A stretch of 63,689 nt of DNA, filler included, from Stramenopiles sp. TOSAG23-6 (Eukaryota), in assembly GCA_900128565.1 (NCBI GenBank). It is 10 parts of 10 records of this genome, joined end to end, with 100 filler letters (N's around TTAATTAATTAA, not from the genome) between each part and the next. Parts side by side here need not be neighbours in the genome. Positions count along the whole stretch, not along the records: positions 19,197 to 25,481 come from LT636729.1; 9 more parts are not named here. One strand, given 5' to 3'. Made by a program: the position numbers and the translations under genes. Below are positions 6,305 through 59,783 of this stretch, one piece after another (position 1 is the first letter of the stretch; every line of letters starts with the position of its first letter). The notes under the pieces were generated by a model, which saw only the letters and a program-made list of their open reading frames with translations, had not been told where the DNA came from and ran no database searches.

Positions 6305-6404
6305 NNNNNNNNNNNNNNNNNNNNNNNNNNNNNNNNNNNNNNNNNNNNTTAATTAATTAANNNNNNNNNNNNNNNNNNNNNNNNNNNNNNNNNNNNNNNN
6401 NNNN
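6305..6404. other. Artificial contig spacer; identical spacers at 12704-12803, 19097-19196, 25482-25581, 31858-31957, 38233-38332, 44602-44701, 50970-51069, 57331-57430
   Basis: 100-nt N run with a central TTAATTAATTAA (stop in all six frames), recurring about every 6.3-6.4 kb. Confidence 0.97.
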
Positions 6405-6869
6405 CGTCCACGACTTTGCGCAAGATCTACAAGTTGTGGAAACGACCGTTCACGGCGTAGTCTAGACCTACAGCTATTGTATTGGCTAGTTTGCACACGG
6501 TTACGTAATCCGCCACGTTCATTGTAGCTTGAAGTATTCGAAGAAGCCGTCATAAGATAATTTTTGCTGAGGATTTCTTCTTATCGATGGAGAGACTACG
6601 TATATTGAGGTACGCGTGTGTGTCTCTCTCACTGTCATGTCATTATTAAATTTTCTAAAGTAGTACGTTACCCGGAGAAAAAAATAACACGAAAACTGAA
6701 CAATATTTTTCTGCATGACATTTGTGGTATTGTTAGGTACGAAATTTCGTATNNNNNNNNNNNNNNAAAACTGATTCTTCTTTGGTGTACAGTTTTTTTA
6801 GGGTTTACCTAGCTCTAGTAGAGTCTACTGTTTACATAAGCTAGAGAGAAGAAACAAAGAAAGAAAGAA

Positions 6870-8311
6870 GTGGCATTTAAGAAAACACAAAAAGAAATAA
6901 ATTTCATGTTTTCAACTAAATCTACTATGCATGCTTCGGAGCTGAATGATTTTACGAAAGCTGAGACGGTAAGTGATACTTCTAATCTTTTCACTTCGCC
7001 TATAAGAGTNNNNNNNNNNNNNNNNNNNNNNNNNNNNNNNNNNNNNNNNNNNNNNNNNNNNNNNNNNNNNNNNNNNNNNNNNNNNNNNNNNNNNNNNNNN
7101 NNNNNNNNNNNNNNNNNNNNNNNNNNNNNNNNNAAGTAGACAAGATTAATAATTCCCAGTTCTCTAAAAAAAACCATATCCGATCATTAGAAGATATAAA
7201 AGAGATCTATTCCAATTTAATAGGTCGTATACCTAGGCGATTTGCAAAAGACGTTGAATGGCTTCGAAAAAAAGTGCTAGAAGTTGAAGAAGGCAAAGAT
7301 GAGTTAAATGAAACTATGTCTACGAAAGACTCTGTTTCCCACCCAACCCTTGAAGAAATAAGGGAGCGATATACCAATGAGATAGGCAAAATACCTAGAC
7401 GATTTGCGCGTAATATGGAGTGGCTTCAAAAGAAATTATCCCAAGCTGAAGCGAGTTCTTCAAAAGTCCCTTCAGTTCAAACTGAACCCGTGAGTGTCTT
7501 TCTTGCCGTAAATAAGGATATAGTAAAACTCTCGAACATGTCAATAGCTGAGCTGCAAAATGAATACAAACGAACAATTGGTATCGTGCCTGTACAGTAT
7601 TTGAACAATAGTAAATGGTTAGAAAGGAAACTTGCTGAAACTATTGCAGGGCCTAGTTATACTCCAATAAGAAAAAATGCGTTGCCTGAGACTAAAAAAG
7701 CTCAGATTTCGTCAACTGCAGCGGACACGACAACACTAGAACAAATAAAGGAGAGATACATGAATGAAATTGGGCGAATACCAAGACGTTTTGCCAAGGA
7801 CATTGTGTGGCTTCAAAAGAAGTTATCAGAAAAGAAAATGAACCCTTCGTCGTCTGCTGTAAGAGAACAAGTTGAAGCATCTGAGAAAGATTTTATGCTA
7901 TTAGATGATACTAGATTTATCAAAAAAAATGCATCTGAATCTTCACCCTCGGAATATACTGAACATTATAAACGAGAAATATCCAATAATATGGTATTTG
8001 AAGACAATGATGCGACAAAGAATGGTCTAGAAGACACTGTTAGTGATACACACGTAATGAAGAGGAAGTTAGTCAGTTCAGTTGAGTCTTTAGAGAAGAG
8101 ACAAAAAATCGAAGCAACAATTCCATTCATTAAGCAAGTTGAGGAAGCATTGAAAGCTACCAATGAATTACAACATTTGAAAAAGTCTTTATATGCATAT
8201 GACCGTGGTGAAATGAGTGTTACATCTATGATGACACATTTCAAAGAATTGATTTCTGACGAGCCTAATTTAATTAAATCTTTCGATGAGTTTGTAAATT
8301 ATCAAGTGTAA
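6870..8311 (+). CDS. Protein with four ~30-aa helical repeats and a C-terminal PAH-like domain (mirror copy at 10854-12185, minus)
   Basis: Repeat LEEIxERYxNEIGxIPRRFAxxxEWLQKKL in 4 copies; C-terminus FIKQVEEAL...SLYAYDRGEMSVTSMMTHFKELISDEPNLIKSFDEFV resembles a Sin3 paired amphipathic helix. Confidence 0.6.
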
Positions 8312-8580
8312 TGTGATGAATATGTGTCTTGCATAAAAACTTGATTTGAAAAGAGATATACAAGTTTTGTTGAAGTATTTTTGATGTTAAAGATTAATAA
8401 AACACGCCTTTATATTTTTCATAGTATATACCAGTCTACGACTCTACTTACCCATTTTTTTCTTCCGACAAACTTCGTTATACATTAGCCCACAAAATTT
8501 ATGTATAATTTGTATAATATGCAAATGATAAAAAAAATGAAAATTTTAATTCCAAAGTGAAACATTCTTTGCATTAATAA

Positions 8581-8895
8581 CTAAAACATACCAAATTCTT
8601 GTAAAGCAAGAACCATGTCAAGTAAAAACACATCAGGGCTACCTTCTTCTATAACTTTTTTAACCTTTTCAAAAAATTCATCTAGTGTTAATCCAGATTC
8701 CGCCTTGACATATTCCTCGACCTCTGTCTCAAACTCTGTACAAAACTGATTGTAAACTTCTGTGTATTGAAGCTTATACTCAAAATATTGGTCAGAAGGA
8801 GGCTTCATATCACGGAATACTTCAATATGTTTGGAAGCAAATTCTTCAAACATAGAAGGAAACTTTGTCATTAAATGTTGCGTGAGTTTATCCAT
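8581..8895 (-). CDS. BART/ARL2-binding-domain protein (CFAP36/ARL2BP-like)
   Basis: EYKLQYTEVYNQFCTEFETEVEEYV...GLTLDEF...LALQEFGMF matches the BART family pattern. Confidence 0.7.
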   Translation of the reverse strand: MDKLTQHLMTKFPSMFEEFASKHIEVFRDMKPPSDQYFEYKLQYTEVYNQFCTEFETEVEEYVKAESGLTLDEFFEKVKKVIEEGSPDVFLLDMVLALQEFGMF

Positions 8896-9437
8896 CGTTT
8901 AATTTTCTTTTGGTGTCCCTAAGAACTCCTCTTTCTTTTAATTCGATCTGACTGGAATAATATAATATTGAACAAATTATAAAAAGAAAGGGGTAAAATT
9001 TTATCTCCTCGTCTTCTGCTCTTTGTGTAGTATTATTACTATTGAAAAAGTCAGAAGAAGAAGAAGAGGGTCAATTTATTATTCAAATTCAATAAAATTC
9101 TCAAATCCCGCGTTACCGGGTACGTTATTACTAATAGTAACTGACGACACAGGTATGCAAAAACCTTGCCTACTACTACTCACAAATCAAGCTTGCGCTT
9201 TTCTTTCTAAGAATGTCACTGATAAAATCTGGCACTCTCCCTCATTAGCGAGCAAAGGCTTTGGCAATGAAAGCAACCCAACAAACATTTCTACAACAGT
9301 GCTTGCATCTGACATATTACTTTCACCCCAAGTTGAATCATGCACATCAAGATTAGGAACTTTTTGGGGGTCTCTAAATACCAGGAAATACAAAGACAAA
9401 AACTGAAGTATTAGTTGAAAAGTAAGAAGGGGGCCTA

Positions 9438-9978
9438 TTGACGTTACTTCGCTCCTTCCCGGAAGATCACGATACGCTTAAATTACTACTAAATCAACAT
9501 ATTCCAGATACCTTAAGAAAGGAAATATGGGCGAAGAATTTAAATAATCCAAAGGCACGTCGACTTTTTGATGAACAAGTCTCTGTAAGTTTGTTGAAAA
9601 CAATTTCGAAACAAGATGTCGAAATAACACGAAATTGTGAAAGACTAGTGGATCAGCATTTTCCATATATAGCTGATGATGTCCACAGCGTGACAATGAT
9701 GAAGACTGTNNNNNNNNNNNNNNNNNNNNNNNNNNNNNNNNNNNNNNNNNNNNNNNNNNNNNNNNNNNNNNNNNNNNNNNNNNNNNTTTAGAGACCCCCA
9801 AAAAGTTCCTAATCTTGATGTGCATGATTCAACTTGGGGTGAAAGTAATATGTCAGATGCAAGCACTGTTGTAGAAATGTTTGTTGGGTTGCTTTCATTG
9901 CCAAAGCCTTTGCTCGCTAATGAGGGAGAGTGCCAGATTTTATCAGTGACATTCTTAGAAAGAAAAGCGCAAGCTTGA
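9438..9978 (+). CDS. Fragment of a possible TBC/RabGAP-like protein spanning an N gap at the palindrome centre
   Basis: LLLNQHIPDTLRKEIWAKNL...KQDVEITR resembles the TBC N-terminal signature; interrupted by Ns. Confidence 0.35.
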
Positions 9979-10269
9979 TTTGTGAGTAGTAGTAGGCAAG
10001 GTTTTTGCATACCTGTGTCGTCAGTTACTATTAGTAATAACGTACCCGGTAACGCGGGATTTGAGAATTTTATTGAATTTGAATAATAAATTGACCCTCT
10101 TCTTCTTCTTCTGACTTTTTCAATAGTAATAATACTACACAAAGAGCAGAAGACGAGGAGATAAAATTTTACCCCTTTCTTTTTATAATTTGTTCAATAT
10201 TATATTATTCCAGTCAGATCGAATTAAAAGAAAGAGGAGTTCTTAGGGACACCAAAAGAAAATTAAACG

Positions 10270-10584
10270 ATGGATAAACTCACGCAACATTTAATGACAA
10301 AGTTTCCTTCTATGTTTGAAGAATTTGCTTCCAAACATATTGAAGTATTCCGTGATATGAAGCCTCCTTCTGACCAATATTTTGAGTATAAGCTTCAATA
10401 CACAGAAGTTTACAATCAGTTTTGTACAGAGTTTGAGACAGAGGTCGAGGAATATGTCAAGGCGGAATCTGGATTAACACTAGATGAATTTTTTGAAAAG
10501 GTTAAAAAAGTTATAGAAGAAGGTAGCCCTGATGTGTTTTTACTTGACATGGTTCTTGCTTTACAAGAATTTGGTATGTTTTAG
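10270..10584 (+). CDS. Mirror copy of the BART-domain gene
   Basis: Protein identical to 8581-8895. Confidence 0.65.
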   Translation: MDKLTQHLMTKFPSMFEEFASKHIEVFRDMKPPSDQYFEYKLQYTEVYNQFCTEFETEVEEYVKAESGLTLDEFFEKVKKVIEEGSPDVFLLDMVLALQEFGMF

Positions 10585-10853
10585 TTATTAATGCAAAGAA
10601 TGTTTCACTTTGGAATTAAAATTTTCATTTTTTTTATCATTTGCATATTATACAAATTATACATAAATTTTGTGGGCTAATGTATAACGAAGTTTGTCGG
10701 AAGAAAAAAATGGGTAAGTAGAGTCGTAGACTGGTATATACTATGAAAAATATAAAGGCGTGTTTTATTAATCTTTAACATCAAAAATACTTCAACAAAA
10801 CTTGTATATCTCTTTTCAAATCAAGTTTTTATGCAAGACACATATTCATCACA

Positions 10854-12185
10854 TTACACTTGATAATTTACAAACTCATCGAAAGATTTAATTAAATTAG
10901 GCTCGTCAGAAATCAATTCTTTGAAATGTGTCATCATAGATGTAACACTCATTTCACCACGGTCATATGCATATAAAGACTTTTTCAAATGTTGTAATTC
11001 ATTGGTAGCTTTCAATGCTTCCTCAACTTGCTTAATGAATGGAATTGTTGCTTCGATTTTTTGTCTCTTCTCTAAAGACTCAACTGAACTGACTAACTTC
11101 CTCTTCATTACGTGTGTATCACTAACAGTGTCTTCTAGACCATTCTTTGTCGCATCATTGTCTTCAAATACCATATTATTGGATATTTCTCGTTTATAAT
11201 GTTCAGTATATTCCGAGGGTGAAGATTCAGATGCATTTTTTTTGATAAATCTAGTATCATCTAATAGCATAAAATCTTTCTCAGATGCTTCAACTTGTTC
11301 TCTTACAGCAGACGACGAAGGGTTCATTTTCTTTTCTGATAACTTCTTTTGAAGCCACACAATGTCCTTGGCAAAACGTCTTGGTATTCGCCCAATTTCA
11401 TTCATGTATCTCTCCTTTATTTGTTCTAGTGTTGTCGTGTCCGCTGCAGTTGACGAAATCTGAGCTTTTTTAGTCTCAGGCAACGCATTTTTTCTTATTG
11501 GAGTATAACTAGGCCCTGCAATAGTTTCAGCAAGTTTCCTTTCTAACCATTTACTATTGTTCAAATACTGTACAGGCACGATACCAATTGTTCGTTTGTA
11601 TTCATTTTGCAGCTCAGCTATTGACATGTTCGAGAGTTTTACTATATCCTTATTTACGGCAAGAAAGACACTCACGGGTTCAGTTTGAACTGAAGGGACT
11701 TTTGAAGAACTCGCTTCAGCTTGGGATAATTTCTTTTGAAGCCACTCCATATTACGCGCAAATCGTCTAGGTATTTTGCCTATCTCATTGGTATATCGCT
11801 CCCTTATTTCTTCAAGGGTTGGGTGGGAAACAGAGTCTTTCGTAGACATAGTTTCATTTAACTCATCTTTGCCTTCTTCAACTTCTAGCACTTTTTTTCG
11901 AAGCCATTCAACGTCTTTTGCAAATCGCCTAGGTATACGACCTATTAAATTGGAATAGATCTCTTTTATATCTTCTAATGATCGGATATGGTTTTTTTTA
12001 GAGAACTGGGAATTATTAATCTTGTCTACTTNNNNNNNNNNNNNNACTCTTATAGGCGAAGTGAAAAGATTAGAAGTATCACTTACCGTCTCAGCTTTCG
12101 TAAAATCATTCAGCTCCGAAGCATGCATAGTAGATTTAGTTGAAAACATGAAATTTATTTCTTTTTGTGTTTTCTTAAATGCCAC
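10854..12185 (-). CDS. Mirror copy of the repeat/PAH-like protein
   Basis: Identical to 6870-8311. Confidence 0.6.
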   Translation of the reverse strand: MAFKKTQKEINFMFSTKSTMHASELNDFTKAETVSDTSNLFTSPIRXXXXXXVDKINNSQFSKKNHIRSLEDIKEIYSNLIGRIPRRFAKDVEWLRKKVLEVEEGKDELNETMSTKDSVSHPTLEEIRERYTNEIGKIPRRFARNMEWLQKKLSQAEASSSKVPSVQTEPVSVFLAVNKDIVKLSNMSIAELQNEYKRTIGIVPVQYLNNSKWLERKLAETIAGPSYTPIRKNALPETKKAQISSTAADTTTLEQIKERYMNEIGRIPRRFAKDIVWLQKKLSEKKMNPSSSAVREQVEASEKDFMLLDDTRFIKKNASESSPSEYTEHYKREISNNMVFEDNDATKNGLEDTVSDTHVMKRKLVSSVESLEKRQKIEATIPFIKQVEEALKATNELQHLKKSLYAYDRGEMSVTSMMTHFKELISDEPNLIKSFDEFVNYQV

Positions 12186-12997
12186 TTCTTTCTTTCTTTG
12201 TTTCTTCTCTCTAGCTTATGTAAACAGTAGACTCTACTAGAGCTAGGTAAACCCTAAAAAAACTGTACACCAAAGAAGAATCAGTTTTNNNNNNNNNNNN
12301 NNNNNNNNNNNNNNNNNNNNNNNNNNNNNNNNNNNNNNNNNNNNNNNNNNNNNNNATACGAAATTTCGTACCTAACAATACCACAAATGTCATGCAGAAA
12401 AATATTGTTCAGTTTTCGTGTTATTTTTTTCTCCGGGTAACGTACTACTTTAGAAAATTTAATAATGACATGACAGTGAGAGAGACACACACGCGTACCT
12501 CAATATACGTAGTCTCTCCATCGATAAGAAGAAATCCTCAGCAAAAATTATCTTATGACGGCTTCTTCGAATACTTCAAGCTACAATGAACGTGGCGGAT
12601 TACGTAACCGTGTGCAAACTAGCCAATACAATAGCTGTAGGTCTAGACTACGCCGTGAACGGTCGTTTCCACAACTTGTAGATCTTGCGCAAAGTCGTGG
12701 ACGNNNNNNNNNNNNNNNNNNNNNNNNNNNNNNNNNNNNNNNNNNNNTTAATTAATTAANNNNNNNNNNNNNNNNNNNNNNNNNNNNNNNNNNNNNNNNN
12801 NNNACGTTTTCATCATGAATTTCAAATTTATTTTTTTTCATACGAAATTTTGTACCTAAGAAAAAAAATATTTTTTTTTGAGTTTTTATTCATTGACGTT
12901 TTCATCATGAATTTCAAATTTTCAATTTTTTTTTAATGGGGAATTTTGTACCTAACAAATGTTTTGAATTTTTTTTAAATATTTTTTTGTAATACAT

Positions 12998-19094: not shown

Positions 19095-19243
19095 TTNNNN
19101 NNNNNNNNNNNNNNNNNNNNNNNNNNNNNNNNNNNNNNNNTTAATTAATTAANNNNNNNNNNNNNNNNNNNNNNNNNNNNNNNNNNNNNNNNNNNNAAAA
19201 AAAAAAAAAAAAAAATAGGGAAAAAATTTCCTATGAAAAAAAT

Positions 19244-19289
<46 letters not shown>

Positions 19290-21655
19290 ACAATTTTATG
19301 AAATTGGTGAAATAATGAAAATGTACAAATGTGCTTAAAAATGAATCACATAAATCTAATGTTGTAGAGGATGATGAACACAATGATGTTAATAATTCAA
19401 TGATTGTGCCAACAGTGCTACTTGGCCATTTATATGACAAGTCAATTGGATTATGAATGTGTTCCTATATTTGTAGAAAATATTTCAAAATTTAAAAAAA
19501 TATTTTGTTAGGTACAAAATTTACTACGAAAAAAAAAATGAAAAAAAAATGAAAAAAAAATTCCAAAATTTTTTTTAAACAAAAGATAAAAAAAGATAAA
19601 AAAAATATTCTTATTACAACACGTACCAACATTTTTGGTGTCATATGCCGGGGACACAAAACTGTTTTCATAATTGAATATAAAATGTTTTGAACTCTTT
19701 CATCACTTTTTTCAATTTTTTCACTTTTTTCAATTTTTTCAATTTTTTCAATTTTTTCTTGATGTTGTCGACAAAATCGAACATGAATTATTTTTTCACG
19801 CCCATTACCGGGTATCAGCTGGTCAGGCACATTTTCTATAGTAAAACCTAGTAAAGATGCAATTTCTCTACTTATAGTAGGGTCATACGGTAATGTTTCA
19901 ATAAGCATGTATTTTGGAAAAATATTTCAAAAAAAATCTAAAAAATTTCGTTAGGTACAAAATTTCGTACGAAAAAAAAAATTCGATTTTTTTGTAAAAA
20001 AAATAAAAAAATAAAAAAATAAAACATACATACTATCAAGACAATCAGCAACAGATAAAATTTGTTCGGTAAAAATAAAAGGTTGAAATTGTTTTTTTTT
20101 TTTTTTTGAAATTTTTTTTTCTTCTTCTTTTGAAATTTTCGTTTTTTTTGGACTTTCTTGATTAGGATTAGGGTTAGGGTTTTTTAATGCAGGTATGCAT
20201 TTCATTACTAAATTCCACATCCCTACATAATCAATGACATTACTTGTATCAATAGCATGATATCCATTACTTCCAGGTTGTTTTAAAGGAATTTCCATAC
20301 AATGGTAAAAAAATATTTGAAAAAAAAATTCAGAATTTTTGTTAGGTACGAAATTTTTTTACGAGATTTTTTTTACGAAAAAAAAAAAAAAAAAAAAAAT
20401 GTAGGATAAAAAAATACATGCAATTACCAAATGTAAAAAAACAGCGTATTGTATTGTTTTTGACAGATTTTTGTAGACGAATAAATAATGGTGTCCAAAC
20501 ATTTTGAAGCGTTTTCGCAAATGAAGGTGAACCCACCATATTATCGATTGCATTGCTTGTATTGGTTGTAGTAGAGTTAGGGTTAGGGTTAGGGTTAGGG
20601 TCGTCGAAAATTTCGTCACTAGTTAGTGATGCAAAAGCGCCAACAGGCCCTTGACATTCTAAATATATGGCATGCTGTTTGATCCCATCGATATCATCAT
20701 TCGATATTTCAAAATTTTCAAAATTACATGTAGAAAGTATTGTGAAAAAATATTTCAAAATTTACTATAAAAAAAAAATTTGTTAGGTATGAAATTTTTT
20801 TACGAAATTTTTTTACGAAAAAAAAAAATTTAAATTTGAAATTTAAATTTGAAATTCATATAAAACGTACAACATCAAATAGAGTTGGGTTTATATACGT
20901 CACTGTAGTGTTTGTGAGGGAAGAGTCAACGGAGGAAACCCCATGTTTAAGCCAATCTACAAGAAGATGTGATAAACGTCCATGACCTGCACTTTGGTCT
21001 GAGAGTCTTTTTGCACGTACATAAATTATGAAAAAATATTTCGAAAAAAAAAATCTAAAAAAAATTGTTAGGTACAAAATTTCGTACGAAAAAAAAAATC
21101 AAAAAAAAAAAATTCAAAATTGAAATGAAAACGAACTTGTAATAATTTTTTTGTGTTTGTTTGTACAGATTTCAAAGATAAAATCGTACGCCATGCAATC
21201 CAATGTTGTTTCATAGCACTTAATGTCTTTTTATCTGTTCGAATCCATGAAGGGATTTGTTCAATTAATTGACACAAGGTTTTAAAAAGTTGAGAAAAAG
21301 TTTCTTCATTGAGCAAGACATCACTCCAAATAGCTGTTGCATATTGTATACTCAACTCTCCTTCAGATGCCAAGGTGATCAGTACCACATTTCGTGCAAG
21401 GGCAATCGAATTTAAGTCATTGAAATGTAGTTCAACTCGTGCTTCTGATGGAATATTTATCAAAGTGGTGAGAGGGTTTCGTATATCACCAACTCCAATC
21501 CAAAGCAATTTGATGGGTGTTGCGTTACATAAACTTTGTACTTCTTCTTTTGTTAGCAAGCTGCGAGCAAATGTATTTCCAATAAGAAAGCCACTCATCA
21601 CACTATCGACAAGCTTACGTCGTGCAAGACTAAATGGTTTAGAGTACACCATCAC
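19290..21655 (-). CDS. DUF4470-domain protein, at least 6 exons, 3' end truncated
   Basis: LLWIGVGDIRNPLTTL...LHFNDLNSIALARNVVLI DUF4470 signature; family introns end AT, TT (20735-20870), AT, AT, AG. Confidence 0.7.
20577..20600 (+). repeat. Interstitial telomere-type (TTAGGG)4 inside an exon; one of about 12 such tracts
   Basis: TTAGGGTTAGGGTTAGGGTTAGGG, read as DPNPNPNPN on the minus-strand gene. Confidence 0.85.
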
Positions 21656-21921
21656 TCGAAATAGCGTACTGTGGCAAGTACTCTAAAAGTAGTACTTAGT
21701 AGTAGTACTTTAAAAGTAGTAGTAAACGTCGTAGTAAACGCCAAGAAGACTTCAGAAGTTCAGAACTTTTTGGAGAACACCACGATAGTACCTGGTAACC
21801 TTGAATCTTAACTTCGCTGACTCTAAATTTTAGACACGTGTTCGTTGTGTTGTTGTTCTTTGCACGACTTGTTGTTGTTCGTCTTGTGATTGATTTTTCA
21901 TACTAATCAAAACAATACAAT

Positions 21922-22642
21922 ATGGTACGTGACACTTCAACACATGTGGGAGGTTGTCATCCATGATATTTGGATGACAACCTCCCACGTAGTTATATTT
22001 CGCTTTTATTTACTATCCCTATCCCACTTCGCCTTTCGTTAGTGTTACACGAACCCTAGTGTTACACTAACGTCATGGTTGAGACCGTTGTGCGATTGAA
22101 CTTCCTTCGGGAAGCTTTCCTCATCGAGTATATGTGGCTAAATCATTTATTCACCATCACAAACCCTTTATATATACCCAAATATACATGCTTTAATTGT
22201 AAAGGAAGGCGAGTTTCAGCACATTCTCCGTGTTATGAACACTAATCTTAACGGTAAGGAGAAAATCATGTATGCTCTGACAGCTATCAAAGGCATTGGT
22301 CGTCGTTTTTCCAACTTAATTCTTAAAAAAGCTGAGATTGACCTCAACAAACGTGCTGGTATGATGTCTCAAGAAGAGATCGAAAAAATCGTAGCTATTA
22401 TTGAAGATCCTCTTCGTTTTAAGATCCCAAAATGGTTCTTGAACAAACAGAAGGATCCTGTTACTGGTAAATGGACTCAACTACATGCTCAAGGTGTTGC
22501 TGGTGGTCTTCGTGAAGACATTGAACGTCTCAAGAAGATCCGCTCTCACCGTGGTCTCCGTCATTACTGGGGACTTACTGTTCGTGGTCAACATACAAAG
22601 ACAACTGGGCGTAAGGGCAAATCTGTAGGAAAGAAAAACTAA
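21922..22642 (+). CDS. RPS18: 40S ribosomal protein S18 (uS13); ATG-only first exon, intron 21925-22189
   Basis: [33 protein letters not shown]...[31 protein letters not shown] at 21922-21930. Confidence 0.95.
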
Positions 22643-22925
22643 AGTAGCCTAACCCTAACCCTAACCCTAATGTCGAAATTAGTGAATTTGAAACATGTCA
22701 GGACTCGATTTTTTAATATTTTTGAGTTAATTATATAGCGTGAATTCAGTTCTATATCTTAGTTTGTTGATTGTCATAATCAAGTTAGAATTCTTAGAAT
22801 TGTATTTAAAATATTGAATAAAAACCAGTATGAAAAAATATTTTGTAACCTTAACCCTAAGTACTATCGAATTGAAAAAAAAACACTTAAAATTGAATAT
22901 ACAATTTTATCTACTTAATTTTTTT

Positions 22926-25382
22926 TTACTCTTCAAAAGTTGTACATTGACTAAATTGACTGATAAAAGAAATATGACTTAAATCACTCAAATGATCATT
23001 ATGCAGTTGCTCATTTCTATCAATAAAACATGAAGTAATAAAATCTCTAATAATTTTGATACTCTTTAAAAGTTCAAATAATTCAGTGATTTCATTAGGG
23101 TTAGGGTTATTAGGGTTAGGGCTATTATTTCCATTATTTTCAATGCATTTTGAAGAATTCGTATTTAATTTCGTACCAATTTGTTGAAGAATTTCACCCC
23201 ATAATTGTAGAACATACGAAATCTCAACTGAATGATCAAAAATTTCATCATTTGTTGTTGTACACGAATTATTTTGTGTTTTTTGTGTTTTTTTTGTTTT
23301 TTTTGTTTTTTGTGTATTTCGTGTTTTTTGTGTCTTTTGTTGTTTTTTGAATTGATTCAATGCAGAGTTTGATGTTTTTTTAGAATCATTGGAATTATAC
23401 TTCTTTTTATTAGGAGTTTTTATACGAATAGGAAGAGATTTTATATCCAAATTATTCTTTTGAAATATTGTACCATTAGGGTTAGGGTTAGGGTGTAATG
23501 AGTGATTTTCATTTTTTTCTAATGTTTGCCATTCCTTCTTAAAAACATCAGGATCTTGTTTTTGAAGTGAAATAATATCATCCTCAACTTGTCTATATTC
23601 TTTAATCAATCCATTGGATATTGAATTCCAATGAGATTGCATTTGACTCATTTGAAGTGAACGATGACGAAATAATCTACTTTCATGTATTTGGGAAAAA
23701 TATTTCAAAAAAAATTTTGAAAATTTGTTAGGTACAAAATTACGTACGAAAAAAAAATTCGATTTTTTTGTTAAAAAAAAAAATAAAACATACAGCAAGA
23801 ATTTGTGAAATGATAATATTTCGTGCAACTTGCAAAGAATATTGACTTGACTCAGTTCCATCTTTACTTTTCATACTAGTGTTTTGATATGATATTGAAT
23901 TGTTAGGGTTGGGGTTAGGGCTATAATTTTTTTTTTTTCCATCATTTTTTGTATCATTTTTTAAATCATTTTTTGTATTATTTTTTGTATCATTTTTCAA
24001 ATCATTTTTTAAATCATTTTTTAAATCTTTTGTTAATTCAGAAAATGAAAACTTGACATGAGGGAAACGACCTATATTTTGGAAAAATATTTCAAAAAAA
24101 AATCTAAAAAAAATTGTTAGGTACAAAATTGAAAAATATTTCAAAAAAAAATCTAAAAAAAATTGTTAGGTACAAAATTTACTATAAAAACCAAAAACCA
24201 AAAACCAAAAAAAAAAAAATCGAATTTGAAAAAAAATTGAAAAAAAATAAAACAAACTTGTGAATTTTTTTTCCAAGACTATAGAGGACAAATAAGAAAA
24301 AAGCATATACATTTTTTTTTCAATATCTATTTTTTGTTTTAATCCATTTTTCAAGAATACCAAATGCTTTGGGAGTATACCATCAGCTACTAATGTTTTT
24401 AAAGATTTTTGAGCGACGCGGTTGAAACTGCTAATTTGGAATTTATCTGTACATGTATTGTGAAAAATATTTTTTTTTTAATAAAATTTGTTAGGTACGA
24501 AATTTCGTACGAAAAAAAAAATAAATTCGAAATTGAAAAAAAATTGAAAATAAACGTACATGATCTTTCATCAATATTATTCTCCTCCAAAATATTATCC
24601 ATCCAATGTGCAAGTTTAGTTAATTTTGCCTCTTTTAATTTTTGACTTTGGTCTCGTTTTTTCATTTCTAATTTTTTTCGGATTCTGGGGAGTGAGACTT
24701 TCCTATATACAATGAGAAATTTTTCTGTCAGACTGTTTTCATTTTCTAGAGATATTTCGTGTTGTTGTTCGAATACTTCATTTTGTTTTTGATGACTATT
24801 TTGTGTACTACGTCTGGTGTTCAATTCTGATTTAACCAGACTATACGGTTTGAAAATTTTTCGAATTTTTTTTTGGTATTTTTTTTTGTTAGGTACAAAA
24901 TTTCGTATGAAAAAAAAAATTTCAAAAAATTTCAAAAAATTTCAAAAAAAAAAAAACGTACATTTCAATTGTATCATAAAATTCATTCCAACGACAAAAC
25001 CCTTCATTAAATGAATCACAAATTTTGACTAATTCTTTTTTTTGTGAATTTGGTAATTGAATATTAATCATTCTACAAATTTTATCAATGGCAACACGAA
25101 ATACTTTATTTGTCATACACTTTTTTGGAATTGATTTTGCTAAATCCATGTATTTTGGAAAAATATTTCAAAAATTTTCTAAAAAAAAAAATTTGTTAGG
25201 TACAAAATTTCGTACGAAAAAAAAAATTCATACAAAAAAATATCAAGAATTCGTGATAGATTATTTTTACATTGAAACTCAACAACAAGACCAGTGACAA
25301 ATATCCGTAAGGCTGTATCAAGAGGTAATTCATCACTAAGACTTCCTTGCATTGATTCACATGTGGATAGGATTGTACTAAC
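22926..25382 (-). CDS. Uncharacterised low-complexity multi-exon protein, 5' end truncated
   Basis: Exons join in frame across family introns with acceptors near 25148, 24841, 24453, 24082 and 23685. Confidence 0.5.
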
Positions 25383-25588
25383 ATGTAATTTTAGGAAAAT
25401 ATTTAAAAAAATAAAAAAAAAATGTTAGGTACAAAATTTACTATGAAAAAAAAAAGATTTTTTTTTTTTTTTTTTTTTTTTNNNNNNNNNNNNNNNNNNN
25501 NNNNNNNNNNNNNNNNNNNNNNNNNTTAATTAATTAANNNNNNNNNNNNNNNNNNNNNNNNNNNNNNNNNNNNNNNNNNNNGACTACA

Positions 25589-28823
<3,235 letters not shown>

Positions 28824-31689: not shown

Positions 31690-32012
31690 TTTGTTGAAAC
31701 TTGAATGCTGGTACTTCAAAGCTTGTATAATTATGCTACAAAGTAGATGCAAAAGAATCTATTTTTGTTTTGTTGTTAGTAGTACAAGTATCGAAAGAAA
31801 ACAAAAATAGTGCATAGATCGATTCAGCGAAAAAATTTGTTTTTTTTTTCGACCCGGNNNNNNNNNNNNNNNNNNNNNNNNNNNNNNNNNNNNNNNNNNN
31901 NTTAATTAATTAANNNNNNNNNNNNNNNNNNNNNNNNNNNNNNNNNNNNNNNNNNNNTATAAAAATTTTGTACCTAACGATTTTTTTTTTGAAATATTTT
32001 TCCAAAATACAT

Positions 32013-34727
32013 TTGGCCAGAAAGAAAATTTGTGTAATGATAAAACAAATGCGGAAGCGTCAGGAAATTCTGGAACAATAGTGACTACTGTACGTCGTGG
32101 AAGTGGAACCTTTGGTGATGATAATAGTAGTGATGATTCACAAAATAGCGATGACTATTCTTTGCAGTTGAAGCGTGGTACATCTGCTGGTTTTGGTAAA
32201 GGTGTCCGTTTTGAAGAAAATGAAGAATGTGATACAATGGCGAATACAGTTCAAGAGAATCATGTGAAACCAAGAAATAATAATTGGCATTTTAGAGGTT
32301 TTGGTAGAGATGACCAATCTAGTGTGTCCGATTTTAGAAACGGGAGCAGTGGAGGAGGATCTCATAGCGATGTAGGCGGTGCACGCAGTCGCTTTGGTGC
32401 AAACAGTACTGAGAGTGGATACGAATGTGTCGATGTACGTTTTCATAGATGAATTTCAAATTTTGTTTTTTTGGTAGAAAATTTTATACCTAACAATTTT
32501 TTTTTTTTTTTTTGAAATATTTTTCCACAATATATGATCAGAGTGAATCAATGAGTGATGATTCAGGCAATGGTGAACCTCAAGTAGTGTCTGTTTTTGT
32601 ACCTGAAGATTGGCTTGAAGGACAACATATCCTAGTGACCATGACGGATGGTCATAGATATACTCTCGCTGTTCCTCCAGGAATGTACGTTTTACTTTTT
32701 TTTTAATTCCAATTTTTTTTTTTTAGTTTTCGTACGAAATTTTGTACCTAACAATTTTTAGTTTTTTTTTTCAAATATTTTTCCAAAACACATTGGTCCA
32801 GGAGAATCATTTCAAACAGAACTTCATAGTCACATGCCTGAACCTGAGGTTGTTTCTGTTCCTGTACCTTTAGACTGGCAAAAAGGGCAACATATACTAA
32901 TTAGCATGACTGATGGTCGGAGATATACCCTTGCCGTACCCCCTGGCATGTACGTTTTCATTATGAATTTCAAATTTATTTTTTTTTTAATACGAAATTT
33001 TGTACCTAACATTTTTTTTTTTTTTTTGAGTTTTTATTTCGATACGTTTTCATTATGAATTTCAAATGTATATTTTTTTTCCATAAAAAAATTTCACATC
33101 TAACCAATTTAAAAAAAAACAATTTTTTTCACAAAACATTGGTCCTGGTGAAGTATTTCAAGCTCATTTACGGCCAAATAAAAATGGTGAATATGAAGAA
33201 GATAATAGAAGTAGTCAGGAAAATAACGAGGAAGGTACAGATAATCCTAACCCTAACCCTAAAGATACGAATGAAAATCGTGCAGATAAATCTATTCAAG
33301 ATATTGATGATATTGAAATAGACGGTAAACGAGATGATAGCCATATTGATGATAAAGATAATCATTTGGGGGAGGTAAAACAACAAGGAAATTCGGAAGT
33401 GCTTTCAAAGACACCATCCTGTACATTTTCATTTTGATTTCCAAATTGTTTTTACTAAGAAAATGGAAAATTTTGTACCTAACAAATTTTTTAAATCAAA
33501 AAATATATATAAATCCATTCCAGCATCCATTGCTGTAGTGTTGCTCATTTGGAAACCATTGTTTGTCGTTTTGTTTCCGGGTTATGTTTACACTGGTGAC
33601 CTCACAAAGGTGTTTCTCTTCCAAGGTTGTATTGGAGGCTCCACACAGACAGTGTTCGTTTTTTGCCTGCTGGAAGTGTTAATCTCTTGTGTTTTGCTCA
33701 AAGACATTGTTGTTCCTTCTGTATTTGGTGCTTTGTGGGGGAAATTTACTCATCTAAAACGAAGAAAATTAGTAGGCTTCTGTGTGAAAATTATTGTCAG
33801 AGCTTCATGTTTCGTGCAAATCGCATTTTTAGTAGCTCCTCAAGTCGACTTGGAACGTGGATTATTCGGTAAATTTAATATAAAAAAATCCAACATGGTC
33901 CTTTTAAACAAACACACTGCAATGACATGTGAAGAAGCTGGCATGTCACTCACAGATGCAGTTGCTATGCGGGCTTGGATTTTTGCCCGTGACAATATTA
34001 TGGCCGTCATGATTTGGGAATTGGCGAGTATTCCAGAACTACCTCTAGATGCTTGGTTACATCATTTATTTGTCATTCTAGGAGTTTGTTTGGGCACAGA
34101 TCCTCAAGTTATGGCTTCACAAGAAAAGGTACAACCATTTATTGATAATGTTTCATTTTTCTTAATTTTAGGTGGTTCAGGTTCGTTTTCATCATGAATT
34201 TTTTTACCTATTTTTTTTTTCATACGAAATTTTGTACCTAACGATATTTTTTTTTTTTAATTTTTCACAATACAGTTGCCGGATTAGTAGAAAGTTGTGT
34301 TTTAGGCTACCATTTAAATAGTAGCAAACCTGATCGCCAGGCTATTTGGATTCAAAGAAGTATTGCCATTCAATCAATTATGGTGTCTATTTTATTTGTT
34401 ATCCTCCCTTCTTTTGTAATCATGAAAAGTTGGCAACATTTTGGGGCACTTGCATGTACGTTTTATTTTTTTCAATTTCGAATTTATTTTTTTTTCGTAC
34501 GAAATTTCGTACCTAACAAATTGTACAAATTTTTTTTTTTTCACAATACATACGGTTACATGGCCTTAATTCTTATTTTAGTGGCTGTAGAAATTAGAAT
34601 GATTATAGTGAAATTTTCAATTGTGAAACATGCAAAAAAAAAAGCTGCAAATTTACTTCAAAGTGATTCAGAGACGAATCAGACAGATATGAGTGAAATG
34701 TCAAATGTACAAAAGAAATTTGAATGA
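32013..34727 (+). CDS. Multi-exon membrane protein with two VSVxVPxDWxxGQHILxxMTDGxRYTLAVPPGIGPGExFQ repeats; 5' end truncated
   Basis: Frame restored across six family introns (five end AT; 34181-34275 ends AG); several hydrophobic segments and an LHHL motif. Confidence 0.6.
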
Positions 34728-35654: not shown

Positions 35655-37254
35655 ATGATTCTAGGATCTGGTTCGATTGACCGTTTTGCGGCATCTGCCC
35701 CATGGGCAGTATTTCCACGCAAGCGACTTGAAATTAGTTATAGTGATTATGCTCATGGCTTATATCAATGTGTATCATCAAAGGAAGAAGATCGTGCGGA
35801 AGTCTCGACTAAAATTGAGCGCTATTGGTCCCCGCATGGAAATGGTTTTGTTTGCTTATCAGTACGCACAGGATTTGATTTATACTTACAGGCACTAAAT
35901 CTTCCTCATGGATCTGAAGTGTTGATGAGTGCGGTAACAATCAAAGATATGGTTCGAATTGTTGAGCATCATGGACTTATCCCTATTGCAATCGATATGG
36001 ATGAAGATGTACTAGTTCCTAGTACTGAATCTATTTTATCCGCGTTGACTCCACGTACTAAGCTTCTTGTATTTGCCCACTTATTTGGTACTATTGTAGA
36101 TCTTACTGATATTGCATTACTTTGTCAAAATAATGGGATATTATTTATGGAAGATTGCGCTGAAGCATATGCTGGACCTTCCTATAGAGGCCATCCAAAT
36201 GCCAGTGTGACCTCCTTTTCATTTGGAACTATCAAAACTTCAACAGCTTTAGGTGGTTGTTTAATGACAATTAAGGATCCATTTATTCTTGAGAATATGC
36301 AAAAACTTCATTCTGCTTATTCTCCTAGACCTAGAAGTGTATTTACAAAAAGAATAGTAAAGTGTAGGTTTACTTTTTGAATCTCACAAGTATTTACATT
36401 TCATTGACAATTTTGAACCTAACCATTGTAATTTTTCTTCACATTTTCACAACACATATGGGTTATATAACTTCGTATCTTCCCCCGCATTGTTTGGTTT
36501 AGCAGTGGCTGCAATGGATGCTGTAGGATTAGATTATGATACTGTTATTACTAATAATTCTCGAGGCTTCCCTGCCGAAGGTGATGCCTTTTATGACCTC
36601 ATTCGATTTCAACCATCAATCCCTTTACTCCATTTGATGTGGCGACGTCTTCATACGTTTGATGAAAAATTTCTAGAAAGTAGAAAAGAACGAGGTAAGG
36701 TAGTGGCAGAATATCTCCAAACCCTTCAAGGTGTTACAGTACCTGGTTCAGCCGTGAAGACTCATTATTATTGGCTTTTTCCAGTTGTACTTCATGACGA
36801 TATAGATTTAAAAATGGTGTGTTCAAAAATGTTAGAAAAAGGGTTTGATGTCACACCAGGGGCAACCCAACTTGGATGTGTTACAAGCTATGTGTCTAGA
36901 AAAGTTTTAGATAACCAAATGTTTCAAGATAATTTCCCATATAAAATGTCCAAAATGATGCCTCGAGTAATTTATTTACCGGTCCAACCTCTTATGTACG
37001 TTTTCACAATTAATTTCAAATTTATTTTTTTTCGTACGAAATTTTGTACCTAACGATTTTTTTACAAAAAATATTTTTCACAATACATGCCAAAATGGTC
37101 TTTGCGGTTACTTCTTCATTCTTTTACTACTGCAGTTGTTCAAGCAAGCCGAGACCGAAGTGCTCAAGATTCTAAAAAAATAGATCCTACTGGATACGTG
37201 AAGTCTTTCATTCATGAAGATGATGAATGGGTAGGGCCAAAGTCCAGGTTGTGA
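35655..37254 (+). CDS. DegT/DnrJ/EryC1/StrS-family PLP aminotransferase, 3 exons, C-terminal SRL
   Basis: LLVFAHLFG, FMEDCAEA, FSFGTIKTSTALGG; introns 36364-36457 and 36996-37088 (GT...AT); spliced product ends GPKSRL-stop. Confidence 0.85.
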
Positions 37255-38162: not shown

Positions 38163-39123
38163 ATGTATTGTAGAAAAATATTTCAAAAAAAATCTAAAAA
38201 AATTTGTTAGGTACAAAATTTCGTATGAAAAANNNNNNNNNNNNNNNNNNNNNNNNNNNNNNNNNNNNNNNNNNNNTTAATTAATTAANNNNNNNNNNNN
38301 NNNNNNNNNNNNNNNNNNNNNNNNNNNNNNNNTTCATTATGAATTTCAAATTTATTTTTTTTTCATACGAAATTTTGTACCTAACAATTTTTTTTCGATT
38401 GTGTTTTTTTTTTTTCACAATACATGCATCTGGATTCACTAAATTTGCCATGGCTATTTGATTCATACCGTCGATCTGAAGTCTGCGAAATTGATCATCC
38501 GTTGATCATATGGAATTTGACTCATGGAGTTATGAATCAAACTGATAATTGGTGTGAAAAAAATAGAAAAATAGATTTGAAACATAGAAATGACTTTCAG
38601 CAACAGCAACAAAAAAGTTTTTTTTGACTTTGGAAGTTCGAGAAAATTAGAAATAAATGGATTACGTGTGTTAGTTCATATGACTGGGTGACGTTACTGA
38701 AAGACTTGCAAGAAACTGAAACTGAATTACATCAAAGTTTGGACAGGCTTAAATAATAAACAATAAAACTTTCTAAGACTATTCATATTTTCTTTTTTGA
38801 TTGGAGGCTGAAAAAAAAAGGAATATTTCTTCAGTTAAACTGGATGAATCCTACTTCATCTACTCTATTTTCTCTGTAGCTAGTACTAGTATACTTAGTA
38901 GCAAGGTTGGTCATCCGTTTTGAACGTTTGAAGTCGCGCGATCCAGCTATATATATCGATATATCGGAGATTTTTTTTCTAAAAAGGGCCGACTGGACAC
39001 GGAGGGTATACGGAAGTACGCACTACGGAGGCCTCTATCGATACTTTTGGTACCATACTTTATCCTACTACTACTGGGTGTATCCTATATATAAAAGGCA
39101 GCATTATCTTTTCAAGGCTAACA

Positions 39124-44481: not shown

Positions 44482-44758
44482 TAAAAAAATATTTAGTTGA
44501 GGAAATTTTCTGAAAAAAAAAATATATTTAAAAAAAAAATATTTAAAAAAAAAAAAAAAATCATTTGGTATACAATTATCAATATAAAATAAAACCTACT
44601 CNNNNNNNNNNNNNNNNNNNNNNNNNNNNNNNNNNNNNNNNNNNNTTAATTAATTAANNNNNNNNNNNNNNNNNNNNNNNNNNNNNNNNNNNNNNNNNNN
44701 NATTTCGTACCTAACAATTTTTTTTAGATTTTTTTTGAAATATTTTTTCACAATACTG

Positions 44759-45317
44759 AATTCCTCGTGATGACAATCTAAAAGGTCGAATGATTCGCGT
44801 AAATATTACAAATTCTGCTAAATGGCATGTTCTTGCAGAAGTTGTCTCTGTCGAAGGCATTGAAGGTCCTTATAAGAAGAAAGATTTTGTCGCGAAATCT
44901 GCGACTTCTCATAAAAAAAAGAACCTTCAAACTTTTGATATTGACCATAAGAAAAAAACCCTTCAAACTGTTAATAACCCTAACCCTAATGGTGAGTCTG
45001 GTTGTTGTGGTGGTAACTCTTGTAATCCGTCAAAACATGACAAGAAATTTAATAATCAAAATGCTAATACTGCTAATAATTGTGAAGAACGTACTAACGT
45101 TCATAATCAAGTTAGTGATAATAAGAAATCTGGTGAAAATAAATGTTGTGGTGGCGGAAGTTGTGGAGATAACCCTAACCCTAATGGAAAAAAAAAACTT
45201 AAAAATAATCGCGATAATGAAAATTTGTGCAGTGATCAGTCTACTATAAATTCAATAGATAAAAATGAGACCAAACAGAATCAAAGTATTTGGGAGAAAC
45301 TCATATCGTGGACATGA
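44759..45317 (+). CDS. Last exon of a CDKAL1/MtaB-like methylthiotransferase (TRAM domain plus Cys-rich tail)
   Basis: IPRDDNLKGRMIRVNITNSAKWHVLAEVV resembles the C-terminal TRAM domain of CDKAL1; preceded by the 3' end of a family intron. Confidence 0.55.
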
Positions 45318-50967: not shown

Positions 50968-51071
50968 CGNNNNNNNNNNNNNNNNNNNNNNNNNNNNNNN
51001 NNNNNNNNNNNNNTTAATTAATTAANNNNNNNNNNNNNNNNNNNNNNNNNNNNNNNNNNNNNNNNNNNNCT

Positions 51072-57330: not shown

Positions 57331-57485
57331 NNNNNNNNNNNNNNNNNNNNNNNNNNNNNNNNNNNNNNNNNNNNTTAATTAATTAANNNNNNNNNNNNNN
57401 NNNNNNNNNNNNNNNNNNNNNNNNNNNNNNAATAAGTTTGAGAGTCTTTTGTTGGATAATATTGGTCCATCACTGATTGAAATTT

Positions 57486-59783
57486 TATCATCACCAACAA
57501 ACCTGTTCCTTTTTGATATTGCTTCAAGACAATTACAATGTAGAAAGAAAGACGATAATCCTGATAAAACATGTGATTACGTTTCTGGTATTTCGTGTTT
57601 GTTACTTGGATGTTGTTTATGTACGTTGCCATGATATAATTTTTTTATCTACATTTTTTGTATTACGAAAATTTCATACCTAACAATTTTTGTACCAATA
57701 TTTTTAATTCTTTCACAATACAGTAGCTGTGTCTTCCGATGATTCCATTAAAAATAAAAATGTAAACAAAGAGTATACAATTAATTCAAAAGAAGTCTTA
57801 AGTTTAATTACTCAGCGAATTGGTCTTGGTCCTTTTCAAAACGCTATTGATTCTCTGGAGAATACAGTTATGTTCCAATCAGCGATTCGTACAGATACAT
57901 GTACGTTTTCACTTCAATTTTTTGTGTAATTTTTTTTTATAGTAAATTTTGTACCTAACAAATTTTAGGGTTTTTTTTGAAATATTTTTTCATCATCCAT
58001 TCACTCAAGGGAGTTCTGAGGAGGAAATTGCAAATTCAACTCCATCATTTTTTGATCGTACTTTTGTATCTTTTTATAGAAAAACAACTCCAGCGATCAA
58101 AAAAGCAATTTATTCAATTTATATGGGGACGGAAGATGTAAAGGCAGATCTGCCAAATGAACCAGGAGAATTAAAAAAAATGGTGATACAATTAAAAAAT
58201 TTAATTAATATACAGTCTAAAAAATTATCAGATCATAGAGACCATCATTCAACTATGAATGAGAAAACATCAAATAATTCAAATAATACAAAGAACCCAA
58301 ATAATACAAATAATAATTGTATAGATCCAACAGTAGATCATTTATCTTTTGAAGAAACAAAAATGATAATGGAAGCTTCGGCGGCAACGAAAACTGAAGA
58401 AATTGAGAAATTAAAATATGAATTGGATGAATCATATCTTGATATTGAAGTTCTCTCCAATGCATTTAATGTACGTTTTGAAAATAACCCTAACCCTAAT
58501 GTACATTTTTTTTTTCGTACCAAAATTTGTACCTAACAAAAAATAATTGGATTTTCTTTTTTCACAATACATGAACTTGAATCTCAATTTTTTGAACTTC
58601 AGGAATCGAATGAAACAATACAATCTAAGATGACAGTAAACGGTACAAATAATTCAAATATCCCGTATACTTTAAAAGATAATAAGCTAAGTATTATCAT
58701 TGCCCCTTTTGAAAGAAAAATCAAAACGCAAAAAAGTGAAATTGATCGACTTTTAAGTTTGGTGCAGAAACAGAATGATAAAATTATAACATTAGAAAAG
58801 ACAGTAAATGAAACACATGCATCAAATGCTATAAAAGTAAAGTATGAGAGTAATGTAAATAGTTCGGATGTATGTCAAAGTCTCGACGACCAAAACCAAT
58901 CTGTGTACGTTTTCAAAATTGAATTTTTTACCTAATTTTTTTTTCATACGCAATTTTGTACCTAACGACGTTTTTTTACTAAAAAAAATCACAATACATT
59001 GCTACTCTGACACATAATAATAGTAAAAATAGTTGTAATAGTAATAGTAGCACTAATTCACTCATTGAAGAAAGTTTATTAAATCTTCAAACTGAACAAA
59101 ATGATCTTCTTCTTATCCTCACTAACCAAAGTGGTGAAACTGACACATGTCAGCAAATTCAAAATTCATTAGATACAAAATTTGACACAGAAAATAAAAA
59201 TGTACCTTTGAATTTGCCGTCTTCGGAGGACGTTTTGATGCCAAAGAATTCTACAGATAGTCAAAAAAATGACTCGAAACAATCTACTACCATGCAAGGA
59301 ATTCATAAATTTGCAAATTCATTTGCCAATGCATTATTTAGCGCAGTTCACACGCCACCTTCAAGTCCTAAAAGTAATCTTAAAACAACAGAAAGTCCCA
59401 AAAGTAATCTTAAAACAACAGAATTTCAAGATAATGTCACTCATCAAGATGGTATTTTTGAATCTACTGATGCTTATGAGTCCAATAAAATTCCTGCCTT
59501 TCCTCAAACTAATTCTGTCTCTGAGCTGCCTACACCGTTTTCGGGCAATACAACCACAAGTATAACAAGTATTTCTGACACGTATGATAGCAATGTTGTT
59601 GGATTATTTGGTGGAAATAATCCTAATAATCCTGTTTCAGACAATTTTGCTTCTACTACATTATCTCATGATAATAATGTTGTTGGATTATTTGGTGGAA
59701 ATAATCCTAATAATCCTGTTTCAGAAAAATCAATAACACAAAAGGCACCTTGTAATAAAACTGCAAGTTCTTTATTTGCATAA
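57486..59783 (+). CDS. Multi-exon coiled-coil/low-complexity protein, 5' end truncated
   Basis: Exons join in frame over family introns starting at 57621 (ends AG), 57901, 58471 and 58905 (all end AT). Confidence 0.55.

Follow-up and report, generated by a model that had tools for sequence, protein, structure and literature searches.

The AG at the end of introns is nearly universal and is among the most conserved signals of eukaryotic genes; it is read twice, early by U2AF and again, during the second step of splicing, by the catalytic core. The first and last bases of an intron can change together with splicing kept, as in U12-type and U2-type AT-AC introns. Unlike these, the intron described here, located in a stretch of 63,689 nt of DNA analysed as a whole (hereafter the window), differs in its last base alone, with G...U instead of G...G or A...C.

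The closest precedent for an AT acceptor is found in the larvacean tunicates Fritillaria borealis and F. pellucida, for which the available text of the report gives a 3′ AT in 34% and 44% of introns, respectively, and YAY as the last three bases (PMC13326754). According to the same text, the main classes are AG/AT and AG/AC, only about 5% of the introns are GT/AG, and the U2AF subunits are duplicated (PMC13326754). The present window resembles Fritillaria, as portrayed there, in the regular use of a 3′ AT and of a YAY end (CAT at 22187-22189 in the intron of the RPS18 gene; T or C at position -1 in 26 of 28 copies of an introner family). In Fritillaria the 5′ site frequently has a matching triplet before it, and here xAT mostly precedes GT; in both, introns are tied to transposon-like elements and are removed by the major spliceosome, which for the window is a probable reading. 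On the other hand, the 5′ end here is a strict GTAYGT accompanied by a yeast-like CTAAC, and the host is a protist and not an animal. The RPS18 intron has the YAY type of ending (CAT), but it begins with GT after an exon ending in ATG, where the Fritillaria type as reported has a non-GT 5′ end preceded by YAY.

Introners, intron families derived from transposons, are a second point of comparison. The published surveys, as far as their text goes, accept only GT, GC, GA or AT at the 5′ end and AG or AC at the 3′ end, with GC and GA 5′ sites being rare (PMC9860276, PMC12130899), and families with unfamiliar splice sites are discarded unless supported by RNA (PMC12130899). No AT-ending introner family is described in the text of these surveys, whose supplementary tables may list GT/AT classes (PMC9860276, PMC12130899). 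The family of about 100 nt in the window is like the introners in that text (PMC9860276, PMC12130899) in having inverted termini, dozens of copies on both strands and its own splice signals. Unlike the published introners, the RPS18 intron itself lies outside the introner family.

In the marine protist Amoebophrya, more than 60% of the introns are not GT-AG, and the available text describes inverted repeats at the element ends and short direct repeats across exon/intron borders (PMC7789003). In that genome, as presented there, no pair of dinucleotides dominates, and the 5′ and branch sites lack a clear consensus (PMC7789003), whereas in the window GT...AT dominates and the 5′ and branch signals are strong and canonical. 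The literature on GT-AT (GU-AU) introns yielded only scattered single junctions in animals and plants, and no report from a protist. What appears to be new here is a 3′ AT acceptor in a protist, in the GT...AT form and with otherwise canonical signals; non-AG 3′ AT acceptors used by a host spliceosome were already known.

Genomic context of the RPS18 gene

The DNA of the window is AT-rich and eukaryotic, with GC content mostly between 0.25 and 0.38. Nine identical spacers (44 N + TTAATTAATTAA + 44 N) divide it into separate pieces, so that genes on different pieces are not neighbours. The pieces between spacers measure 6299, 6293, 6285, 6276, 6275, 6269, 6268 and 6261 nt, as if contigs had been strung together in order of their length.

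6305-6404, 12704-12803, 19097-19196, 25482-25581, 31858-31957, 38233-38332, 44602-44701, 50970-51069, 57331-57430: spacers

The piece 6405-12703 is a perfect inverted self-duplication, with 100% identity over 2245 + 348 + 243 nt around a run of N at 9710-9786; it looks like a chimeric amplification or an assembly artefact and not like biology.

The uS13/RPS18 gene lies wholly within the piece 19197-25481. Its features, in which a caret in the text below marks a splice site, are as follows.

21901..21924, plus strand: 3′ part of exon 1, with 5′ UTR letters seen in RNA and the ATG at 21922-21924; the 24-letter side of the RNA joint
21925..22189, plus strand: phase-0 intron of 265 nt with GT...AT ends, from the RNA joint 21924 to 22190
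21925..21930, plus strand: 5′ splice site GTACGT, a hexamer of the class seen in the introners, GTAYGT
21944..21990, plus strand: perfect 20-bp hairpin with a 7-nt loop in the intron, found in both MFE and centroid structures
22065..22071, plus strand: CACTAAC, best branch-site-like motif and sole CTAAC of the intron, 119 nt before the 3′ end
22137..22141, plus strand: GCTAA, alternative candidate branch site, 48-52 nt before the intron's 3′ end
22184..22189, plus strand: 3′ terminal ATACAT, with the acceptor dinucleotide AT at 22188-22189, from the RNA joint
22190..22642, plus strand: exon 2, uS13/RPS18 codons 2-151 and stop TAA (22640-22642), from translation, homology and RNA contigs of 4 runs
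22203..22204, plus strand: in-frame AG, unused as acceptor in any contig seen
22653..22670, plus strand: telomere-like repeat (CCCTAA)x3 within the 3′ UTR of the RPS18 transcript, covered by record 19 of RNA run X5

The frame open from 22190 encodes a product that ends in GKKN. This product matches solved chains of 40S ribosomal protein S18 with E = 6.9e-64, its residues 3-148 corresponding to residues 4-148 of 4v6w_AS, and the similarity to eukaryotic 40S S18 runs over the full length, including the N-terminal motif FQHILR, as in members of the uS13/RPS18 family. Its homologues carry the Ribosomal_S13 domain (PF00416), and the alignment with relatives has 50 invariant columns. Among 10 neighbouring ORFs searched against Pfam, five had no family. 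Public runs that contain the stretch include two small DNA runs, which are a possible source of it; the others are metagenomes of marine origin and poly(A) metatranscriptomes, and come from several studies.

Structure of the RPS18 intron

We consider it probable that positions 21925-22189 are intron 1 of a nuclear gene, uS13/RPS18, in a marine protist with AT-rich DNA, and that the major, U2-type spliceosome removes it as GU...AU. The 5′ GT stands in a hexamer compatible with U1 and U6, GTACGT, the joint starting after 21924. At the other end the intron reads AAATATACAT, followed by GCT at 22190, so that the joint follows ...ACAT and not the canonical terminal AG.

The reading frame 5′ of the GCT is closed by the TAA at 22139-22141 and has no ATG after it, and no AG is present in 22142-22189; an AG acceptor is therefore unable to yield the N-terminus beginning ALIV, and the conserved N-terminus is reachable only through the ATG at 21922-21924 joined to 22190. 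No second ATG occurs in the approximately 100 nt upstream of that ATG.

Two candidates for a branch-site consensus are present upstream of the acceptor: CACTAAC, 119 nt before the 3′ end, and GCTAA, about 49 nt before it. The preliminary description had correctly located the second, about 50 nt from the end, and had overlooked the first, which is the better match to a branch site; either of the two may be the one used. Downstream of CACTAAC the intron bypasses three AG and 14 other AT dinucleotides, and the sole ACAT is the site used.

The whole intron is strongly structured (folding z-score of -6.74). In addition to the hairpin at 21944-21990, it contains a tandem duplication of TAGTGTTACAC at 22040-22068 and a CUUCC-UUCG-GGAAG hairpin at 22101-22114; these hairpins and the duplication might bring the two splice sites and the branch site effectively closer to one another. 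A snoRNA or miRNA within the intron was considered and rejected, since no Rfam family fits: there was no match at the gathering score across the window, and at E ≤ 1 the region 21800-22300 gave only hairpin-driven hits resembling miRNAs, which at 25 bits stay below the gathering scores of 65-94.

Splice junction in RNA

Contigs of four RNA runs, from four studies, were placed on positions 19300-25470 at 90% likeness; they represent environmental populations and not the sequenced cell. Record 22 of run X6, a 219-nt contig of a poly(A) metatranscriptome, joins 21924 to 22190 and skips 265 nt with the ends GT..AT. The mRNA thus reads ATG^GCT and not ATG^GAA, in agreement with the preliminary description, which had placed an intron of 265 nt at 21925-22189, between ATG^GTACGT and GCT, and had looked to transcripts for a decision. 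On one side of the joint, 195 letters of this contig lie on 22190-22384 with 1 other letter, and on the other side 24 letters end at 21924; since 24 + 195 makes 219, nothing lies between the two sides. The exact joint is found in one contig, in one of the four runs, and its short side of 24 letters is below the advised 30, a length flagged as error-prone in metagenomes.

Contigs from relatives that are about 91-93% similar, from two studies, meet the gene at the same point. The alignment of record 21 of run X6, with 18 other letters in 195, begins at 22190 and has ...AAAATG directly before it; that of record 5 of run X15, from another study and with 21 other letters, also begins at 22190, which is its seventh letter. 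No contig of the four runs crosses 22189/22190 unspliced. Coverage starts at 22260 in X5 and at 22279 in X12, so that these runs do not reach 22190 and speak neither for nor against the joint. The RNA junction at the AT end indicates that the host's own splicing machinery accepts AT ends.

The same contigs gave no usable joints for introner junctions in 19300-25470. Other RNA joints in this region were taken as artefacts, since they fall at telomere-like or introner repeats and have extra letters between their two sides. A sequencing error turning AG into AT was also rejected: the two DNA runs that are a possible source contain all the words sampled, and 27 of the 31 scored introners likewise end in AT.

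N-terminus and intron position of RPS18

Alignments of the product (ALIV...) with solved uS13 chains start with query residue 2-3 at chain residue 3-4. Relatives that are 66-73% identical begin with MALVVGDEF, MALVLEESEF, MSLVQSPSF or similar, and the A encoded at 22190-22192 corresponds to their residue 2; the join of ATG to GCT had been said to give the usual uS13 N-terminus, and it does. Four in-frame codons reading [AS]-L-[IV]-[IV] would be expected by chance, at the local base composition, with a probability of about 3e-4.

These data bear on the AG at 22203-22204, which had been named earlier as a caveat and does exist in frame. If it were the real acceptor, the codons for ALIV would belong to the intron and would resemble coding sequence by chance. 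Nearly all eukaryotes follow the AG rule, and two of the 31 introners end in AG, which indicates that the host can use it; still, this explanation is extremely improbable, because no contig of the four runs joins 22205, the AG is read through in three contigs (from two studies) that begin or join at 22190, and the resulting protein would be 5 residues shorter than all six full-length relatives aligned.

The position of the intron was compared with that in other eukaryotes, as had been suggested. A metagenome search with the RPS18 protein gave 12 loci, the best 66% identical, and the eight in which the match starts at query residue 1-3 were examined, leaving out L008 and L010-L012 with late, partial or distant matches. 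In five of the eight environmental eukaryote loci an ...AG^ stands exactly before codon 2 with no adjacent ATG, and in the other three the ATG is contiguous. Three of those five have an ATG^GT donor upstream, at a distance of 52-95 nt (or 497 nt); for the remaining two, the available 215 and 327 nt contain none. Distant eukaryotes therefore have an intron at the same place, directly behind the start codon, and there it ends in AG. The sharing of this position with other environmental eukaryotes makes that of the RPS18 intron look old and not the result of a recent insertion.

The closest public gene model, P0039, is 100% identical over its 113 residues, and its source label points to a marine stramenopile of the MAST-3 type. 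It starts at an internal methionine (MYALTAIK), without the RPS18 N-terminus, and also lacks the 11 residues encoded by 22391-22423. These 33 coding nucleotides begin with GT and end with AG, and RNA contigs (record 12 of X5 and record 1 of X12) run straight through them; it is as if a gene finder had forced canonical ends and cut them out as a false GT..AG intron.

The introner family

The box of the family, GTACCTAAC, occurs 73 times in the window with at most one mismatch, on both strands, some of these by chance in coding sequence. A typical copy reads [AT]GTAYGTTTT...TTTTCGTACGAAATTTTGTACCTAAC...GAAATATTTTTC[CA]A[AC]AATACAT, is about 100 nt long and MITE-like, and has the inverted termini ATGTAY...RTACAT. 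In a scripted frame test both ends were found for 35 copies, four of which were dropped for having fewer than 30 open codons on one side, and 31 were scored. In 29 of these 31, the dominant frame upstream is joined to the dominant frame downstream by the family end (chance 1/3, p = 3e-12), and the first downstream AG, taken instead of the family end, joins them in 11 of 29, which is the level of chance.

The last two bases of the 31 introners are AT in 27, AG in two, AC in one and TT in one. In 28 introners, position -2 is always A (28/28), position -3 is C in 26, and position -1 is T in 25, G in two and C in one; the few copies ending in AG, AC or TT suggest that the last intron base is loosely constrained. 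The 3′ site ...AYAU^ lies 33-51 nt after the box, and an AG situated between the box and the used end is skipped in seven of the 27 copies scored for this. In the introner 19907-20029 (minus strand) and six other copies, a pyrimidine-rich TTTAG about 12-14 nt after the box is bypassed for an ACAT about 30 nt further.

One introner serves as a reference, in a gene similar to ethanolamine-phosphate phospho-lyase.

25962..26055, minus strand: introner AT^GTATGG...TACAAT ACAT^G, with the AT-ending junction confirmed by protein colinearity

The exon before this intron (26055-25962) extends to residue 318 of 6tor_A, and the third residue of the following exon corresponds to residue 322; with the split codon as residue 319, the join is free of gaps. 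In a DegT-like aminotransferase gene with an intron at 36364-36457, the upstream exon matches solved structures and the downstream exon has 0 matches.

Introners also occur as tandem or nested double copies with one donor and one acceptor (1780/1837, 2741/2804, 12852/12948, 24173/24124 and 33002/~33090). In a protein repeat at 32560-33200 (...GQHILxxMTDGxRYTLAVPPG^IGPGExFQ...), the introners 32685-32793 and 32949-33140, the latter a tandem double copy, interrupt the same codon in successive units. Either introner and repeat were duplicated as one, or insertion was repeated at the same motif.

Comparison of the RPS18 intron with the introners

The preliminary description had held that the RPS18 intron is more GC-rich than the introners, lacks their box and is no introner, and these points are borne out. 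The family box TTTTGTACCTAAC is absent from it at up to one mismatch. For the comparison of similarity, 28 of the 35 copies were hand-picked for clean ends; with blastn-short, the best matches of the RPS18 intron to these 28 were 9-nt words at E = 2, against 33 matches at E ≤ 1e-3 for a family member used as control. Its GC content is 0.408, against an introner mean of 0.200 (range 0.15-0.28, n = 28), and its length of 265 nt is 2.6 times the introner mean of 100.5. By box, similarity, length (~100 nt) and GC content (~20%), it therefore falls outside the family, and all that it has in common with the introners is the end motifs, namely the GTAYGT class of donor and the terminal ATACAT.

These shared ends could reflect a host consensus or a very old kinship. 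A kinship would make the RPS18 intron an old degenerate member or a chimera of the family, with an AT acceptor carried by the element. Favouring this are the termini, GTACGT and CCCAAATATACAT, compared with CCAAAATACAT in the family, and the presence of a CTAAC-type box in both; however, no likeness extends beyond the ends, length and GC content differ, and distant eukaryotes use the same position with AG acceptors, so that we regard this origin as unlikely. Even if it were true, the cutting would be done by the host spliceosome.

The data thus support the view, put forward in the preliminary description, that AT acceptors are a property of the host spliceosome and not only of the introners, on the basis of one non-family intron in one 63-kb window, whose ATACAT and GTAYGT are shared with the introners. 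A check of 44 GTAYGT sites without the box, two of them read closely, gave no convincing further non-family intron in the window.

Splicing register and type of spliceosome

One G fits either side of the RNA joint (G at 21925 or G at 22190), and a register TA...TG (21926-22190) gives the same mRNA. If the cut sites were shifted by this one base, neither GT nor AT would truly be used. The two G are interchangeable in RPS18, but the shift would break the GTAYGT donor hexamer common to the RPS18 intron and all 31 scored introners, and only 15 of the 31 introners, those followed by an exon beginning with G, permit a +1 shift, so that it is not a general rule; the TA...TG register is accordingly very improbable.

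An AT...AC register was rejected as well. The exon before the donor ends in AT in 19 introners, where this reading is also possible, and in GT, CT or TT in nine AT-ending introners, for which the non-AT exon end makes AT...AC impossible; the RPS18 RNA excludes it too. The RPS18 RNA allows register 0 or +1, and the introners allow 0 always, -1 or -2 only after an exon ending in T or AT, and +1 only before an exon beginning with G (15/31). Only GT...AT fits all, and the earlier argument for this register was right and is sharpened by the RNA and the introners, which leave a single register in common.

U12-type introns tolerate unusual termini; their consensus is [AG]TATCCTT at the 5′ end and a branch box TCCTTAAC 10-20 nt from the 3′ end. 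Removal of the RPS18 intron by the minor spliceosome (U12-type), or without a spliceosome through end pairing as proposed for introns of euglenozoans and Amoebophrya, would be in keeping with an MFE fold that pairs the 5′ GUA with the UAC just before the terminal AU, and with the inverted termini ATGTAY...RTACAT of the introner family. We find both routes highly unlikely. The intron's 5′ end is GTACGTGA and not [AG]TATCCTT, and no box like TCCTTAAC lies 10-20 nt from its 3′ end; in terms of the general consensus, the 5′ end GTACGTGAC and the lack of CCTTAAC in the last 50 nt place it outside the U12 type. The complementarity of the ends is not extended, being limited to 3 bp (GUA/UAC) in the MFE structure and absent from the centroid. 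Moreover, a strict GTAYGT together with CTAAC are the signals of U2-type introns in organisms with intron definition.

Removal by the major spliceosome is, then, the preferred reading for both the RPS18 intron and the introners, as the yeast-like GUAYGU and CUAAC signals and the lack of U12 signals suggest. The acceptor rule would be a motif ...A-Y-A-U^, usually ACAU, and not the first AG after the branch site; position -2 would stay A, and the last base would be mostly U and sometimes G or C. With its end AUACAU^G and its donor GUACGU, the RPS18 intron would follow the same acceptor rule that serves the introners filling the neighbouring genes. In the established spliceosome structure, as summarized in the available text of the Fritillaria report, the A at -2 contacts the branch adenosine and the first and last bases form a G-G pair (PMC13326754). 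The retained A(-2) would still touch the branch adenosine here, a G(+1)-U(-1) contact would take the place of the usual G-G in the second step, and early recognition of the intron would probably be independent of the AG-reading small subunit of U2AF.

We lean, by a modest degree, towards a broader proposal: that in a lineage of free-living marine protists the major spliceosome has been re-tuned, independently of Fritillaria, so that ACAU^ is the default 3′ site genome-wide, ancestral introns included. If so, the second catalytic step would exist here in a naturally occurring G(+1)/U(-1) form, with the strict GUAYGU and CUAAC kept, and the current gene models for this group would be systematically wrong. 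Textbook 5′ and branch signals combined with mostly AU ends isolate one variable and offer a handle on the recognition of the last base. The case also bears on whether transposon-like introners adapt to the splice code of the host or reshape it. For this abundant group of marine grazers, gene prediction that presupposes GT-AG will give wrong models, with effects on all functional and phylogenomic uses of the genomes.

Telomere-like repeats in the window

Short telomere-like runs, (TTAGGG/CCCTAA)n, are present inside genes and UTRs of the window, some of them in frame as Asn-Pro repeats, for example at 33251-33262.

20168-20179, 20577-20600, 22653-22670, 23095-23121, 23476-23493, 33251-33262, 44978-44989, 45173-45184, 58488-58499: telomere-like runs

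These runs draw many foreign metatranscriptome contigs, with a depth of up to 537 at 23107. The run in the RPS18 3′ UTR lies in the transcript itself, as record 19 of X5 spans 22604-22829 with 0 other letters.
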